64,000 bases of DNA, taken from the IMG/VR virus record IMGVR_UViG_3300025597_000009, positions 1-64,000 of that record; one strand, 5' to 3'. This stretch comes from a virus. Its lineage: Duplodnaviria; Caudoviricetes. The notes beneath the pieces were generated by a model. It worked only from the letters and a program-made list of their open reading frames with translations, had not been told where the DNA came from and did not search any database. The translations under genes were made by a program, and so were the position numbers. This document shows, piece after piece, positions 8,348 through 44,923 of this stretch (positions are counted from its first letter, which is position 1; each line of letters starts with the position of its first letter).

Positions 8348-8635
8348 TTAATCAAATACAGCCCGAATGTCATTGTCAAAAGGAGAATACTCAATCTGGT
8401 TAAAGGTGAAGTATTTCCCAGCAGTAAGCACCATGTTGCCATGCTTCTGATCTGTTTCATCTGGCCCATCATGCCTGACTACTCCAGTACCTTTTAAAAG
8501 CAGCTCAATAGCTCCTTCATGTTGTTGATAAGCAAAGTCCTTTGTACATTCCAGGGTATGGGAGTTCAATCCTTCTCCTTGAAGCAGGACTAGTTTTTTA
8601 GCTTTGTTCATTGGATAAATTAAGATTAAAAACAC
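8348..8635 (-). CDS. Small His-rich beta protein (likely start MNKAKK)
   Basis: LLQGEGLNSHTL, VRH, KHG and QIEYSP...RAVFD motifs of a phage family usually found next to DUF6745-like genes. Confidence 0.55.
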   Translation of the reverse strand: MFLILIYPMNKAKKLVLLQGEGLNSHTLECTKDFAYQQHEGAIELLLKGTGVVRHDGPDETDQKHGNMVLTAGKYFTFNQIEYSPFDNDIRAVFD

Positions 8636-10206
8636 GCATTAAACAATTTCAGCAATTTAGTTGCTTCATTTTTTGACAACATTACTTTTGAATGTTTATT
8701 ATAAAAAGACATCCATTCACTAACCACTTTGTTGGTTTTCCACGCTTCAAAATAAGATACAATTGTATTTTCAAAGAGTTTGAAATTAAGTGTATCAGTT
8801 TTTTCTTCAGAAGTGTTTAACCAATTAAATAGTTTATTCCTAAACCGCTCACAGCCTTTGTAACCCCCATCTTGCCATTTCCCACCTTCAAAATAATGAT
8901 TAATAAACATCAAATACATTCTAAGAAGTTGTGGATCATAGCCTAAAGGACTAATCACATTCCCTTTTGACTTTGACATTTTTTCACCATCTGGGCCTAA
9001 AATCATACCTTGGTGTATGACCTTTTTAAAAGGCTCATCAAAATCAATATAACCAATATCATACAAGAATTTACAAATAAATCTTGAATAAATTAAATGC
9101 ATACAGGCATGCTCTGGGCCACCAACATATACATCTACAGGTCTTGATTTATCATACTCAATAGTATAAAAAGAGCTATCTACAAATGTATCCAATGTGT
9201 CTAACTCTCCTTCTATTGGAATAGAGCAACCCCATGTACGCTGTCTGGATACACACCAATCAGTTAGTTTATAGTTTGTAGCTTTCTTAATAAAACTATA
9301 CTGTTGATAATCAGTTAGTATCCTTTTATCATTAGAAAATCCTATTCCATGCCTGTTGGCAAAAGAAGCATCTCTACTGTCATCATTAGGTACTCCCATA
9401 ACATATTGTGTACCATACCCTTCAATTACATATTCAGCTGTGTAAACGGGTATTTGATTACCTTTAATGAGTGGGTGTTCACAATAACCAATAAACTTTT
9501 CTATACCATCTTCTTCTAAAGCTGTTACAATAAAAGCAACATCCAATAAAGTTTCTGGTTTAGTAGTAAAGCAAGTAATACCACTTCCGAAATCAATATT
9601 ATAGCCTTCACTTTTACCAATCCAATTAATCTGTTGTTTTTTTGTAGATATTGGATAATCCACTTTATCCAGATCAGACAGTAATCGTTCAGCATAATCT
9701 GTAATTTTAAAGAACCATTGATTTAGTTCTTTTTTTAGTACAGCAGTGCCACATCTATCACAGGTTTCATTCTTAACTTGCTCTCTAGCTAATACTGTTT
9801 GACAAGAAGGGCAGTAATTTTCTTTTCTAATAGCTTTATAAGCTAAACCATGTGATAATAATTCATTAAATAGCCATTGGGTTCTTTGTTGATACGCTTC
9901 TGAATGGGTAGACAATTTAGTTTGAAATCCAGTACTCATTCGAAGCATCTCATTCTCAAAATTAAGAATATTGGCTTCAGTAATTTCTTTGGGGTTACCT
10001 CCAACAAGCTTTGCATAGTTTTCAGCCGGTAATCCAAAAGAGTCATAACCAAAAGGTTGAAATACAGTATGGCCTAAGTACTTTTGAATTTTACAATAGC
10101 TGTCTACAATGGCATAATTATACCAATGCCCTATGTGTAATCCATATCCACTTGGATATGGAAACATTACTGTAATGTACTTATCCATATTATTACGATT
10201 CAGCAA
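8626..10206 (-). CDS. leuS: Leucyl-tRNA synthetase, class Ia, miniaturised
   Basis: MFPYPSGYGLHIGH, GYDSFGLPAEN, Zn knuckle CPSC/CDRC, QWFFKITDYA, DWCVSRQRTWG, DTLDTFVDSS, GGPEHACMHLIYSRF, KMSKSKGN. Confidence 0.93.
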   Translation of the reverse strand: MLNRNNMDKYITVMFPYPSGYGLHIGHWYNYAIVDSYCKIQKYLGHTVFQPFGYDSFGLPAENYAKLVGGNPKEITEANILNFENEMLRMSTGFQTKLSTHSEAYQQRTQWLFNELLSHGLAYKAIRKENYCPSCQTVLAREQVKNETCDRCGTAVLKKELNQWFFKITDYAERLLSDLDKVDYPISTKKQQINWIGKSEGYNIDFGSGITCFTTKPETLLDVAFIVTALEEDGIEKFIGYCEHPLIKGNQIPVYTAEYVIEGYGTQYVMGVPNDDSRDASFANRHGIGFSNDKRILTDYQQYSFIKKATNYKLTDWCVSRQRTWGCSIPIEGELDTLDTFVDSSFYTIEYDKSRPVDVYVGGPEHACMHLIYSRFICKFLYDIGYIDFDEPFKKVIHQGMILGPDGEKMSKSKGNVISPLGYDPQLLRMYLMFINHYFEGGKWQDGGYKGCERFRNKLFNWLNTSEEKTDTLNFKLFENTIVSYFEAWKTNKVVSEWMSFYNKHSKVMLSKNEATKLLKLFNACF

Positions 10207-34012: not shown

Positions 34013-37000
34013 TTATTTCTGCCAGTGAGTTGCCATTTTCATGGAAGATTGCATACTAAGTCCAATCAAGTAACTGGACCCAACTTCTTCCATAATTTCC
34101 CTAATTCGTTTAGCAATATCTTCTCGACCTTTTGGGATTTGTACTACAAGTTCATCATGCACACTCAATTTGATACTACAGTCAGGCTGTGTTAGTATAT
34201 AATTATGCACAGCTATAGTAGCTTCTTTTAACATGGAAGCAGCTGAGGCTTGGATCATTTTATTACCCTACTTGCTCTTTATCAAGTAGTTCTGAATATT
34301 TCTATTCAGTTTCGACTATATCACAGCGTAAGTATTTAATTATGTTTTGACTAAAGTCTAATAGTTCTCCAGGCGTTGCATTGTTTTTCATAGTGTTAGC
34401 TTTCATTGAGATAATTCTACAATTATCTGGAGTATATCCAAAATCAAGTCTAACCCTATCAATAGAAGGGGAATTTATTGGTAAGTTAGCTTCATCTAAC
34501 AACGGAATGTTTAATAAAGGGCAGTACTTGGGAATTTTCAAAGATTCAAGTGTTAAACTAAAATCAAGTCCTTTTTCTGCTGCTCTTTTTTTAGCATTTC
34601 TTACCAAAGTGGTCATAATTCTTCTTTTATAGGATTCTTTTCTAAGCTTAGAAAGCCTTTCCTTAAATTCAGTGTCCTTATGAACCCTTTCTCTTCTTTG
34701 TTTATTAATAGCATCTCTTCTACCTGTATTGTGCTCATTATGATAAGCATTAAAACAATCTCTACATTTTCCTGTAGGATAGCTACAATAGCTTTTCTTC
34801 CCTGACTTTAATACATTGTATTTTGTCATTATAGGGAAAGCACTTATTGGTAGTTCCTGTTTACATCTAGTACAAACTTTACTAGTTTTTTCCTTTTTCA
34901 TAACGTCTGAATTGATTCTCAAACTTATAAAATGAGGAATTAACTTTCATAACTATAACTAATTATGCTTACACCCTGGACACTCGTGTTAGGATTATTG
35001 TCTACAATAACTCACCTATTAGTCTGTGAACTTTCCCCATACTTTTATTTGCTTTCAGGGGCTTAGCTGCTGATTATCCAATTTTTCAACTTTTCAAACA
35101 TTCACAATTGCCATTTCTAGCTTTGTTGTAGTGTTAAAAACTCTAAGGATTTTCCAGCAATTCATCCAGTTTTACTTTCCCTATCCATTAAGGAAAATTG
35201 ACACCTTCTTTTTCTACTTCATAGTCCTCAGACATTTTCTTAGTAAACCAATTGAACCGTCTGATTCTATTGATTTTACTACCACATCTGACTTCCATGT
35301 TATTAACTACTTTCCGTTTAATCTTCTGCTGATACTCATGTAGTGCTTTTAGATTGGCTTGTAGCTTAGCTAATACTTTCTTGGCCACAGGCACTTCAAT
35401 GTTAAGAACAGCAGCAATCCTGGCAGCTCCTCCACCAAAGAGAACAATTATGTTATCTCATCAGCTCTTTATCTGATGATTCTACAGTTTCATTTTTAGA
35501 TTATATCTGTAGTTCAGACTATATCATAAGTATTTTAAAGAAAATACTCCCGGACGCTCGTGTTAACTTCATCACTGTTCTAGTGGTATGTTATTAGTCG
35601 TTGAACCTTCTAAGTATCCCTACTTAGCTTGGCTGCTGATTATCTATCTCTAGTTTTCCCAGCAGTTCATCCGGTTTTTTTTGGGCTATCTCACAAGCTA
35701 AATCAAATTTCCTTTTTAAATAATAGGCCGCATCTTTGTAAAGATAATTTATCAATTGCTTAGTTTGCTTCTGGTTCATTTCAAGTCTATAGGTTACTGT
35801 GTTAGTATAAGAAGTTTCTGACCATTTGATTATACTACCTAGATGTAATTCTAAAAAATTACATAATTTATCAAACAACTTTTTTGAACATGAAACAAAC
35901 CCAGACCTATGCTTTGCACTAAAATGCCCATCTCCATCCATTAATCCTCTAACAAAATCCCAAGTAAACTCAAATTCAGGATTTACTATTATGGATTTTT
36001 TAGCGGGTATTCCTAATGAAGTTATAAATTTATGCAAGTCTTTATGGCCAAATAAAACTTCATAACATTCATTAACTTTGTATATACTTATATTCACACC
36101 TAAAAACTTTTGAAATTGTTCAAGAAGTTCTTTATCTTTTTGAACAATAGAAATAGTTTTTTTTGTTGACCCTAAATTCCCATCTGTTACAATTATACCT
36201 AACCAGTACATTGCACTATGGTTCAATTTTGTAAAACAACTTATATCTTGAAGTACTCTATTTTTCCCTCCACTACCTTCTAAAGGTATATTGTGCTTCT
36301 TATAAGTTTTTATTACAAATGGCCTCCCATAACCAAACATAGTACAAATTTGATTAGGGGTGTGACAATAAGCATACTCAAGTATTTTAAGTTCTTTATA
36401 ATTATAAAAGTTAAAATTTAAACTTTTTGAAACTTTTTGTACTTGATGGTAAGAGATGTTAAGTTCCTCTGCAATTGATTTTATTGATGCACCCTTTTCT
36501 AATTTTTCTTTAATTTGATCTAGCATTTTATTCATTATTTACTTATGTAAAAATAATGAATTTTTTGACAATTATTCAACCCAAACAAAACAGGTTTGTG
36601 GGGATCTCTTAGTTCTCCATTTACTTCTTTGCTAACAATGAATGTAGGGTCACCTCTAATGATCCGGTGTGTGTCCTGAGCCAGGAAAGAGTGTAAATCC
36701 ATTCCTTTATTAAAGTTATCCAGTAGGGCTTGATCCTGGCTATAGGAAGCAGCTAACCTTAACTCTTGATTAGATAAATCCACATCCACAAATACATAAT
36801 CCTCAGAGTCAGGAACAAAGCATTGTCTGATCTCTTTAATAGCTGGAAGATTTTGCATATTAGGATTATTGCTGGATAACCGACCAGTAGCAGTAAAGCA
36901 TTGAGAAAAATCAGAATGAATCCTTTTTGTAACTGGATTGATATACTTTAAAAAGTTATCTCCATAAGTACTGATTAGCTTACTATACTCCCTGTGTTTA

Positions 37001-37971
37001 AGCAGAGCTGTAATCAGTGGAGCTAGTTTTCCTTGTGGTTTGTCCCTAACATAAGCTTCCAGAAATTCTGCATTCGTGCTATCCATTGGTTCTCCACATT
37101 TGGCAAAGATGGCTTTCATCTGTGTGGAGGAACTCATGTTAAAATGGGCCATAATCAGCTCAATTCTCTCTTCTACTGTCTCACAGCTGTCAAAGAGTTT
37201 TGCCAGTTTTTTGGTGATGTTTTTAGGTCTATGAATGAAATCCTGATTCAAAGCAGGTACATTCTCAACTAATTGGCGAACCTCTATGGTAATCTGCTGT
37301 TCATACTCAGTAAGTTTCCCTCTAAAGATGGATGTGTTTTTATTCCATTTTTCTACATCCAGAGAAATCCCATTCAGCTCCATCTGGGCTAGTACTGGTA
37401 AGAATTTATTTTCCAGACTAGAACAAGCTTGCAACTTCCATTGTCTAAGCTTTTGCTGCTGTCGGACAAACAGAGGGTATAGATGAATCAAGTCATCATA
37501 GAGATAATCTAGTTGTTCATTGGTAATTACATCTCCTGGTTTCCAGTTGATAAAAGACAATCGAATATCCTTATTCATTTTGATATTGAAATGCCTTTCC
37601 AGACAAGCATCCAAACTATGCTTCAAGTCAGAACCATTATATAAAATCTGAGAGTTAACCATGGTACAATACACATTAGGTAACTCTACTTGATAATGGT
37701 ACTTTAGAATCTTCCAGTCAAACTTGGCATTATGAGCTATCCATAACTTGTCTACTAGCAGTGTAATAGCAGCTTCAATTTCTTTTAGTGTCCAATCATC
37801 TAGCTTGATGATAAAATACCCTGTAGAGCCTCCTAAACCCAATAGAATTGGATGTAAGGTAAACACATCCAATCCATTGGTTTCAAAGTCAAATTCAATG
37901 TAGGGAGAATCTCTAAGGGGCTGTAGCTGTGCTAAGTTGGTTACTAATGTATACTTGTCCAGTTTTGTCAT
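34013..37971 (-). CDS. polA: Family A DNA polymerase with 3'-5' exonuclease, spliced from 3 exons (37971-36579, 35444-35191, 34255-34013; 629 aa)
   Basis: ExoI DFET, ExoII HNAKFD, ExoIII YLYDD, TGRLSSNNPNMQN, motif A DLSNQELR. Splicing restores motif B KPVLFGFLFGGG and NFP|IQASAA; motif C VHDEL. Confidence 0.92.
34256..35190 (-). mobile_element. Group I intron 2 of polA
   Basis: TTTCCT|TAATGGATAGGGAAA (P1). Core GAATTGCTGGAAA, AATCAGCAGCTAAGC, GTTCACAGACTA, GATATAGTCGAAAC. Ends ...AAAATG|ATC CAA. Confidence 0.9.
34302..34922 (-). CDS. Intron-encoded His-Me (HNH-like) homing endonuclease with Zn finger
   Basis: CTRC/CRDC, CPLLNIPL, SPSIDRV..GYTPDNCRIISMKANTMKN. Confidence 0.8.
   Translation of the reverse strand: MRINSDVMKKEKTSKVCTRCKQELPISAFPIMTKYNVLKSGKKSYCSYPTGKCRDCFNAYHNEHNTGRRDAINKQRRERVHKDTEFKERLSKLRKESYKRRIMTTLVRNAKKRAAEKGLDFSLTLESLKIPKYCPLLNIPLLDEANLPINSPSIDRVRLDFGYTPDNCRIISMKANTMKNNATPGELLDFSQNIIKYLRCDIVETE
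35445..36578 (-). mobile_element. Group I intron 1 of polA
   Basis: Exon end TTTGGGT pairs with the guide GCCCAAA located near the end of the ORF. Core GAACTGCTGGGAAA, AATCAGCAGCCAAGC, GTTCAACGACTA, GATATAGTCTGAAC. Ends ...CATAATTG|TTCTC. Confidence 0.9.
35624..36535 (-). CDS. Intron-encoded LAGLIDADG homing endonuclease
   Basis: YWLGIIVTDG and FVRGLMDGDG motifs; N-terminal HTH. Confidence 0.9.
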   Translation of the reverse strand: MNKMLDQIKEKLEKGASIKSIAEELNISYHQVQKVSKSLNFNFYNYKELKILEYAYCHTPNQICTMFGYGRPFVIKTYKKHNIPLEGSGGKNRVLQDISCFTKLNHSAMYWLGIIVTDGNLGSTKKTISIVQKDKELLEQFQKFLGVNISIYKVNECYEVLFGHKDLHKFITSLGIPAKKSIIVNPEFEFTWDFVRGLMDGDGHFSAKHRSGFVSCSKKLFDKLCNFLELHLGSIIKWSETSYTNTVTYRLEMNQKQTKQLINYLYKDAAYYLKRKFDLACEIAQKKPDELLGKLEIDNQQPS

Positions 37972-44815: not shown

Positions 44816-44923
44816 CCCAGGGAAAAGGAATCGAACCTCTATACAAACTGATTCAGTTAATGAAAGCCTATTATTGGCTTTTATAAAACCTCAGTTTTGC
44901 TCTACCAGTTGAGCTATCCCCGG
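44816..44923 (-). ncRNA. tRNA-like RNA with expanded anticodon arm
   Basis: Acceptor CCGGGGA/TCCCTGG, D-arm TAGCTCAACTGGTAGAGC, T-arm AGAGG-TTCGATT-CCTTT. 43 nt sit where the 7-nt anticodon loop should be. Confidence 0.75.

Follow-up and report, generated by a model that had tools for sequence, protein, structure and literature searches.

We describe here a 520-amino-acid leucyl-tRNA synthetase (LeuRS), designated P0002, that is encoded in a 64,000-nucleotide stretch of phage DNA (the window) taken from the 100,586 bp IMG/VR record IMGVR_UViG_3300025597_000009. Judged by its sequence, P0002 is a bacterial-type, miniaturized, phage-encoded LeuRS. Taking the sequence together with a structural model, we favor, with some reserve, the reading that it is a working minimal LeuRS of a phage-specific lineage and that it would charge host tRNA-Leu.

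Identification of the Gene

The open frame at 8626–10206 on the minus strand comprises 526 codons when counted from a TTG in the program-made list of reading frames. The initial annotation assigned the gene to this whole interval; the frame is real, but TTG 10206 is not the start. The upstream gene has its stop at 10193–10195, and the sequence then reads TAA-T-ATG with the ATG at 10188. Because all homologues begin M-x-KYITVMFPYPSG at this ATG, and because the gene call for the identical 520-residue product on ENA contigs starts there as well, we define the gene as 8626–10188.

Pfam matches in P0002 comprise tRNA-synt_1, tRNA-synt_1g, and the LeuRS editing domain PF13603. NCBIfam TIGR00396 (leuS_bact) matches the protein in four pieces with E = 1e-123 and 414.3 bits, a sequence match that is far beyond chance. 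The closest solved relatives are the LeuRSs of Thermus thermophilus (E = 2e-82), Escherichia coli, Agrobacterium (AgnB2), Neisseria gonorrhoeae, and Mycoplasma mobile. No near match emerged when the region was compared by megablast with 50,697 phage records. The protein contains 40 leucines (7.7%, the 20th percentile among phage ORFs), encoded by all six codons in genome-like usage.

Catalytic Core and Predicted Fold

The HIGH and KMSKS signatures and the zinc knuckle, described in the initial annotation as intact in a protein of about 520 residues, are all present in the translation (Table 1). We compared P0002 with its relatives in an alignment of 55 sequences from the phage family and cellular LeuRSs (A1) and in an alignment of 41 members of the phage family (A2). 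Residues H18, G20, H21, D49, E56, Y354, G356, G357, H360, H364, M404, S405, and K406 are invariant in A1. The ZN-1 cysteines C126, C143, and C146 are likewise invariant in A1 and C129 is nearly so, while all four are invariant in A2. These alignments show that the predicted leucine and adenylate pocket residues are kept as in true LeuRSs and that the catalytic core, as read from sequence, is complete.

An AlphaFold2 model calculated from the 55-sequence alignment has a pLDDT of 93.1 and a pTM of 0.88, with no disordered stretch. Of its 520 residues, 518 align to LeuRS structures with Z scores of 32–37, and tRNA-bound structures are among the matches (2bte, rmsd 2.0; 4aq7, rmsd 2.9). The aligned ranges are residues 33–765 of 860 for E. 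coli, 33–783 of 878 for T. thermophilus, and 36–544 of 637 for M. mobile. The model shows that the core of P0002 is predicted to fold like that of a bacterial LeuRS. Canonical bacterial enzymes (E. coli, 4AQ7; T. thermophilus, 1H3N/2BTE) share with P0002 the HIGH and KMSKS motifs, ZN-1, the position of CP1, and the editing residues, as well as the stem-contact fold and the first helices of the anticodon-binding domain. Relative to these enzymes, P0002 lacks the C-terminal tRNA-elbow domain and the last part of the helical domain, as well as the ZN-2/CP2 insert, two segments of CP1, and the leucine-specific domain.

Modules Absent from P0002

In total, P0002 is 340–360 residues shorter than canonical bacterial LeuRSs. 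The two CP1 deletions correspond to T. thermophilus residues 265–305 and 358–400 in the HMMER alignment, a loss of about 80 residues. Between RQRxWG and DTxDTF, 12 aligned residues in P0002 stand against 64–92 in cellular LeuRSs (T. thermophilus residues 437–486); the spacer had been put at roughly 10 residues, and we count nine between RQRTWG and DTLDTF themselves.

Only five residues (GPDGE) separate HQGMIL from KMSKS, leaving no room for a leucine-specific domain. The initial annotation correctly reported this insertion as absent, but it is equally absent from the closest cellular enzymes: four to five residues are all that occupy the site, both throughout the phage family and in the 14 nearest LeuRSs of cellular origin. 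Its loss therefore predates the phage lineage. The domain is missing from Bacillus subtilis and M. mobile LeuRS as well (PMC3643597).

At the C-terminus, the model contains four tail helices (residues 440–457, 469–481, 485–499, and 506–519), and the chain ends at about residue 765 of the 860 in E. coli LeuRS, some 95 residues early, with nothing beyond the fourth helix of the bundle. Full-length relatives continue for 92–110 further residues, which include the C-terminal tRNA-binding domain. We count 113 residues after KMSKS in P0002 versus 213–240 in full-length relatives, in line with the earlier estimate of about 115 and no tRNA-elbow domain. Structural alignment and region counts agree that the C-terminal domain that contacts the tRNA-Leu elbow is absent.

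The Mini-CP1 Editing Domain

A PF13603-type CP1 with a threonine-rich motif and a conserved Asp sits after ZN-1 in P0002, as in bacterial LeuRS. This mini-CP1 spans 116 aligned residues, compared with 114–296 and mostly 150–230 in cellular relatives, and is modeled with pLDDT values of 84–97. The initial annotation described a shrunken CP1 that retains FTTKPETL and carries a changed editing block, GTQYVMGVPNDDSRD, and both features were found. The counterpart of T213 in the E. coli and T. thermophilus enzymes is T252, and FTTKP.T is conserved in at least 90% of CP1-bearing family members. Residues D270, R272, and D273 align with D342, R344, and D345 of the E. coli enzyme. The family consensus of the editing block is GYGTgyVMGVP.DDkRD, in which YGT, VMGVP, and DDxRD are among the blocks kept. 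The GTG motif reads GTQ in P0002 (Q261), and its third position across the family is G, S, A, E, Q, or N.

At 57% mean pairwise identity among the CP1-bearing clusters (n = 21), CP1 is as well conserved as the N-terminal half (64%); the second Rossmann half reaches 76% and the helical tail 43%. Such conservation of the mini-CP1 would be expected only if the enzyme handles aminoacyl-tRNA ends.

Table 1. Features of the P0002 gene and product and of the phage tRNA-like RNA, in window coordinates
Feature	Position	Strand	Basis
Coding sequence, 520-residue minimal LeuRS (P0002)	8626..10188	(-)	stop codon included; ATG start 10188-10186
HIGH signature, residues 18-21, class I Rossmann fold	10126..10137	(-)	translation
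ZN-1 zinc knuckle CPSC...CDRC (C126, C129, C143, C146)	9751..9813	(-)	alignment conservation
Mini-CP1 editing domain, residues ~193-305	9274..9612	(-)	PF13603, E 1e-20
Threonine-rich editing motif FTTKPET, residues 207-213	9550..9570	(-)	HMMER alignment to 2v0c/1h3n
Editing-site block GTQYVMGVPNDDSRD, residues 259-273	9370..9414	(-)	alignments
Junction RQRTWG-CSIPIEGEL-DTLDTF, residues 315-335	9184..9246	(-)	region counts, HMMER alignment gap
GPDG tetrapeptide at leucine-specific domain site, residues 398-401	8986..8997	(-)	region counts
KMSKS loop, residues 403-407	8968..8982	(-)	translation
Shortened helical anticodon-binding-type tail, residues 441-520	8629..8868	(-)	model helices, structural alignment ranges
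tRNA-like RNA	44816-44923	(-)	Rfam tRNA match, 43.6 bits; missed by ARAGORN

P0002 Belongs to a Family Found on Phage Contigs

We collected relatives of P0002 with a word-indexed cluster search, in which the best 120 clusters all had lengths of 300–558 residues. The family comprises at least 117 clusters, with members on phage contigs of up to 633 kb, and falls into two length classes: proteins of about 515–558 residues with PF13603 and proteins of about 396–438 residues without it. The mini-CP1 is conserved in 21 of the 117 clusters and missing from the other 96. All 117 share the same deletions with the same region lengths, namely the 12-residue RQRxWG–DTxDTF link, the G-x-D-G tetrapeptide, and about 113 residues after KMSKS. 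When sequences were clustered at 50%, only four clusters outranked cellular LeuRS, and scores fell from 783 and 473 to 382 bits. In IMG/VR, dozens of members lie on contigs of 13–608 kb, four of which are rated 97–100% complete, and the JGI label for family members is plainly "leucyl-tRNA synthetase". The published huge phage LR745206.1 also carries a member, of 422 residues. The initial remark that synthetases are rare in phages thus holds for small phages but not for large ones, in which this LeuRS family is common.

A core tree of the 117 family clusters and 14 cellular LeuRSs, from which the CP1 columns were left out, places the phage family in a single clade (SH-aLRT 100). The deepest family branches carry the mini-CP1, and the CP1 state changes at least 6–8 times over the tree. 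A separate tree of CP1 alone recovers the phage CP1s as monophyletic (98) and contains the same eight-member clade around P0002. Because the CP1 tree matches the core tree and the phage CP1s are monophyletic, the domain appears to have been inherited and not recently captured. On this phylogenetic evidence, the mini-CP1 is ancestral to the family, inherited, repeatedly lost, and occasionally swapped. In one such case, P0007 has a catalytic core like that of P0008 (tree distance 0.014) and a CP1 like that of P0009 (0.066), which suggests that recombination between phages swapped the module.

We scanned one genome per species from 185,579 prokaryotic species and detected only full-length LeuRSs at no more than 40% identity; the scan patterns were specific to P0002, so divergent family members in cellular genomes could be missed. 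The nearest cellular LeuRSs are 36–40% identical to P0002 by tblastn and 41–51% over the stretches matched by phmmer. They come from uncultured Clostridia, Peregrinibacteria, and Caldisericota, and at 35–40% identity no donor lineage could be named from them.

The gene is well conserved within the family. Ninety-two columns are invariant among the 41 members of A2, at a mean identity of 55%. Comparison with a 70%-identical IMG/VR homologue gave pN = 0.21 and pS = 0.75, the latter saturated, for a pN/pS of about 0.28; for the mini-CP1 alone, pN was 0.29 and pS was 0.73. These comparisons show that the whole protein is, by its substitution pattern, under purifying selection. An ENA contig of the phage differs from the window at one position in 20 kb and at none in the gene; it represents the same strain and therefore offers no diversity for a population-level estimate of selection.

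A second, distant kind of truncated phage LeuRS was also observed. The 735-kb phage LR756501.1 encodes a 508-residue protein (L002, 2986–4512) that is 31% identical to P0002. This type, seen also at L151, L158, L161, and L164, has neither CP1 nor the C-terminal domain and retains a CxxC...CxxC insert after RQRxWG. The sequence suggests that this trimming was independent or much older.

Relation to Known LeuRSs

The characterized "minimal" natural LeuRS, that of M. mobile (MmLeuRS, PDB 3ZIU, 637 residues), has a bacterial-type core like that of P0002, and the two superimpose with Z = 36.2 and an rmsd of 1.8 over 415 residues. Both carry a G-x-D-G tetrapeptide in place of the leucine-specific domain, GKDG in MmLeuRS and GPDG in P0002 (PMC3643597). 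The two enzymes were trimmed at different points. MmLeuRS has a nonapeptide linker and no CP1 at all, whereas P0002 keeps a 116-residue CP1 with its editing residues, although 96 of its relatives are CP1-less. Conversely, MmLeuRS has an insert of about 50 residues after RQRxWG that P0002 lacks, and it extends about 90 residues past the aligned end (544/637), apparently retaining the C-terminal region that is missing here. MmLeuRS is also cellular and essential, while P0002 is the product of an accessory phage gene.

CP1-less family members (396–438 residues, such as the 422-residue protein of LR745206.1) belong to the same clade as P0002, share its deletions, and reach 74% identity to it in the core. 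They fuse ...Q..W to ..DWCVSRQR through 1–4 residues, at the place where P0002 retains the mini-CP1. Phage-encoded synthetases are known in general, as a huge-phage survey documents (Al-Shayeb et al. 2020, PMC7162821). LR745206.1 and LR756501.1, both from that study, carry truncated LeuRS genes, and the passages of the survey that were consulted do not describe loss of LeuRS domains. Compared with those phages, the phage that encodes P0002 probably has a genome of only about 149 kb, appears crAss-like, and has five tRNAs, none of them tRNA-Leu. Our literature search returned general reports of phage synthetases and no description of a truncated phage LeuRS or of the P0002 family. What this case adds is a CP1-bearing and seemingly ancestral form, carried by a mid-size phage of the crAss-like kind that has no tRNA-Leu.

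Genome Context and tRNA Supply

The IMG/VR record encodes a major head protein, a DNA polymerase, and helicases, which identify it as a phage; CheckV rates it 43% complete. The ENA contig NODE_45 of the same phage, examined end to end, is 149,225 bp long. Its two ends (L310, 11774–14717; L309, 1–1034) lie in a single tandem-domain gene with TQNTQ linkers and join in frame to give 1326 codons. The genome is therefore probably complete at about 149 kb, the contig having broken at a repeat. On this sequence evidence, the CheckV value for the 100.6-kb record looks too low. Pfam matches to crAss ring proteins, clear for CrAss_Ring_2 and faint for CrAss_Ring_1, suggest a Crassvirales-like phage.

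ARAGORN identified five tRNAs (Tyr, Gln, Lys, Ile, and Arg) in the full 149 kb and no tRNA-Leu anywhere in it, including the window and the 100.6-kb contig. Rfam likewise returned no tRNA-Leu, and contributed only a tRNA-like RNA, in the window and five further stretches, which together cover all but about 5 kb (ENA 129.0–134.5 kb). The initial annotation had noted that the window contains no tRNA-Leu, and this extends to what is probably the entire genome; its suggestion that P0002 might charge a phage tRNA is accordingly not supported for a tRNA-Leu of this phage.

The tRNA-like RNA at 44816–44923 has acceptor, D, and T arms, with 43 nt that fold as a long hairpin in place of the 7-nt anticodon loop. 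A G or a C serves as the discriminator, and CCA is not encoded. Since bacterial LeuRS normally needs an A73 discriminator (PMC3643597), this RNA would be a poor LeuRS substrate. The earlier proposal that it is charged by P0002 thus finds no support in its missing anticodon loop or in its discriminator.

The neighbors of the P0002 gene are small genes without assigned function, and an RNA ligase gene lies 3.5 kb downstream. Clustering of ORFs from 50 family loci revealed no neighbor common to more than nine of them, and no second LeuRS fragment was found in the contig.

The tRNA supply is richer in complete huge-phage relatives, which carry the LeuRS gene in genomes with 47–62 or more tRNAs. 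In LR745206.1 the gene adjoins a tRNA cluster and a GlnRS gene; just downstream of it, ARAGORN places a tRNA with the four-base anticodon gtag among consecutive tRNA-Asp genes (L001, 5522–5595). Five huge-phage genomes with a family member contain 26 Leu-anticodon tRNAs, all with A73, and 10 of the 26 have a 4–5-nt variable loop. Short-loop tRNAs of this kind are 73–77 nt long and occur beside long-arm isoacceptors of the same anticodon (L227, L228, L236, L202, and L248; L295 in KVP40; L298–L301 in LR756501.1), while the tRNA-Ser and tRNA-Tyr of the same huge-phage genomes keep their long arms. We considered a private pairing between the LeuRS family and short-arm tRNA-Leu and rejected it as nonspecific: Vibrio phage KVP40 has three short-loop tRNA-Leu and, to our knowledge, no LeuRS gene; the family-bearing phage G002 has no short-loop tRNA-Leu; and the P0002 phage has no tRNA-Leu. 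XacN1 and Atu_ph07 have only long ones.

Proposed Function and Alternatives

During infection, P0002 would activate leucine and charge host tRNA-Leu. The absence of a phage tRNA-Leu means that the substrate would be that of the host, and the enzyme probably adds to or replaces host leucylation instead of forming a private phage pair. The grip on the tRNA would come from the catalytic core, from ZN-1, and from the helical tail, which is short and slightly basic, with no elbow-binding C-terminal domain involved. The mini-CP1 would clear mischarged products, perhaps less well since GTG has become GTQ. Fidelity modules may be expendable in a short lytic cycle, which could be why relatives dropped CP1 altogether. 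An intact synthetic site combined with a conserved post-transfer editing site argues that the product is leucyl-tRNA. There is precedent for such economy, as M. mobile LeuRS is active without CP1 and the leucine-specific domain and carries GKDG, a tetrapeptide that restores 55% activity to E. coli LeuRS deprived of the leucine-specific domain (PMC3643597). The error-prone enzyme envisaged in the initial annotation is plausible given GTQ and the repeated shedding of CP1 among relatives, but the editing residues are kept.

Several observations weigh against charging of host tRNA-Leu by P0002. When the C-terminal domain is deleted from the LeuRS of E. coli or T. thermophilus, neither aminoacylation nor post-transfer editing remains, and this domain is also crucial to the Mycobacterium tuberculosis enzyme (PMC3561953); P0002 has no visible replacement for it. 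The TIGR00396 score lies below the curated equivalog cut-off of 548.4 bits, a shortfall that arises from the missing domains, as the aligned parts match well. The terminal branch leading to P0002 is about twice as long in CP1 as in the core (0.54 versus 0.25); together with Q261, this is a sequence-level hint of relaxation, in which editing may be weakening, and not of decay. Two ways of making good the lost domain were considered and set aside. An adjacent trans-acting partner would call for a conserved neighbor or a second LeuRS piece, and we found neither the former in the 50 family loci nor the latter in the contig. Charge compensation is too weak, the tail being only slightly more basic than its cellular counterparts (+3.0 versus +1.1; P0002, +5).

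We consider it unlikely that P0002 is a synthetase paralogue with a nontranslational job, either making Leu-AMP and transferring the leucine to an acceptor other than tRNA-Leu or serving as a source of adenylate or Ap4A. The acceptor in this case could be the tRNA-like RNA, the Y-RNA-like elements near 58–64 kb, a protein, or a small molecule. The proposal draws on the absence of the elbow-binding domain that canonical bacterial LeuRSs need for charging (PMC3561953), on a phage that has no tRNA-Leu yet encodes a cloverleaf RNA with an elongated anticodon arm, on the nearby RNA ligase gene, and on the score below the equivalog cut-off. The leucine pocket, ZN-1, and the post-transfer editing site are nevertheless conserved as in true LeuRSs, the discriminator of the tRNA-like RNA is not A, no RNA or gene is conserved as a neighbor over the 50 family loci, and huge-phage relatives keep the gene among ordinary tRNA and synthetase genes. 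A role in adenylate or Ap4A synthesis alone, which the initial annotation also raised, fits poorly and seems unlikely because an editing pocket for aminoacyl-A76 would be useless there. In a more specific version, which seems quite unlikely, the enzyme, being stripped of all modules that grip the tRNA-Leu body, would leucylate another acceptor, for example the tRNA-like RNA or the Y-RNA-like elements, and the mini-CP1 would proofread or recycle the product. A milder form of this version is more likely than it, though still at somewhat less than even odds: P0002 would be a fully competent LeuRS with a novel mode of binding host tRNA-Leu that dispenses with the elbow domain.

P0002 could also be a substitute LeuRS that resembles AgnB2 and takes over when the host enzyme is blocked by host defense, by a competitor's inhibitor, or by the phage itself shutting down host genes. 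Such a role would be one instance of host tRNA-Leu charging, set apart by its selective reason, and we regard it as distinctly improbable. The best structural match to the model is indeed the agrocin-84 immunity LeuRS AgnB2 (5ah5; Foldseek TM 0.88; VIA Z 36.6, rmsd 2.2), but ordinary LeuRS structures match just as well, with every Z score at 36–37. Benzoxaboroles are CP1-directed LeuRS inhibitors, and compounds of this kind would find no binding site where CP1 is reduced or absent. The huge-phage survey (PMC7162821) reports phage-encoded synthetases together with one phage CRISPR spacer against a host synthetase gene. No inhibitor, toxin, or CRISPR array is linked to the P0002 gene, however, and its neighbors give no hint of this role.

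Finally, P0002 can hardly be a host leuS gene that was captured and is now decaying or without function. The large deletions, the score below the cut-off, and the GTG-to-GTQ change would suit decay, but the frame is open, the model is confident, invariant columns are many at a pN well below pS (with pS saturated), more than 100 clusters on phage contigs drawn from many different samples share the deletion boundaries, the family is monophyletic, and the nearest cellular LeuRS is only 36–40% identical by tblastn.

Host tRNA-Leu charging by P0002 would have several consequences. Hundreds of phage LeuRS genes have no C-terminal domain and are clearly kept by selection, though the E. coli and T. 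thermophilus enzymes need this domain for charging. If tRNA-Leu is charged, the P0002 family would be the minimal natural LeuRS, and its CP1-bearing form, at about 115 residues, the minimal natural editing domain; if P0002 is fully competent without the elbow domain, it would be the smallest natural LeuRS that still edits. Either case could clarify how a LeuRS keeps hold of its tRNA and shuttles it between the synthetic and the editing site, and could provide compact starting points for synthetase engineering. The stepwise loss of proofreading in the family, whose ancestral mini-CP1 was dropped at least six times, is also a natural experiment on the translational fidelity that a virus needs.

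Other Features of the Phages

In one phage group, an ORF of about 280 codons lies near the mini-LeuRS gene (L113, 790–1632, and relatives; eight loci). Judged by its N-terminal sequence only, its product presumably resembles a class II synthetase catalytic core, and trimming may extend to further synthetases of these phages.

The window also contains a group I intron at 35495–35727 on the minus strand (Rfam RF00028, 58.2 bits), located at the junction of ORFs 35624–36535 and 36535–37971. The latter ORF matches DNA polymerase PHROGs, and the arrangement looks like that of a polymerase gene interrupted by a self-splicing intron. To the left of the window's contig, three giant ORFs of 3147, 2033, and 1674 residues (L305, 555–9998; L307, 10342–16443; L308, 591–5615) have no Pfam match and presumably encode virion or tail proteins.

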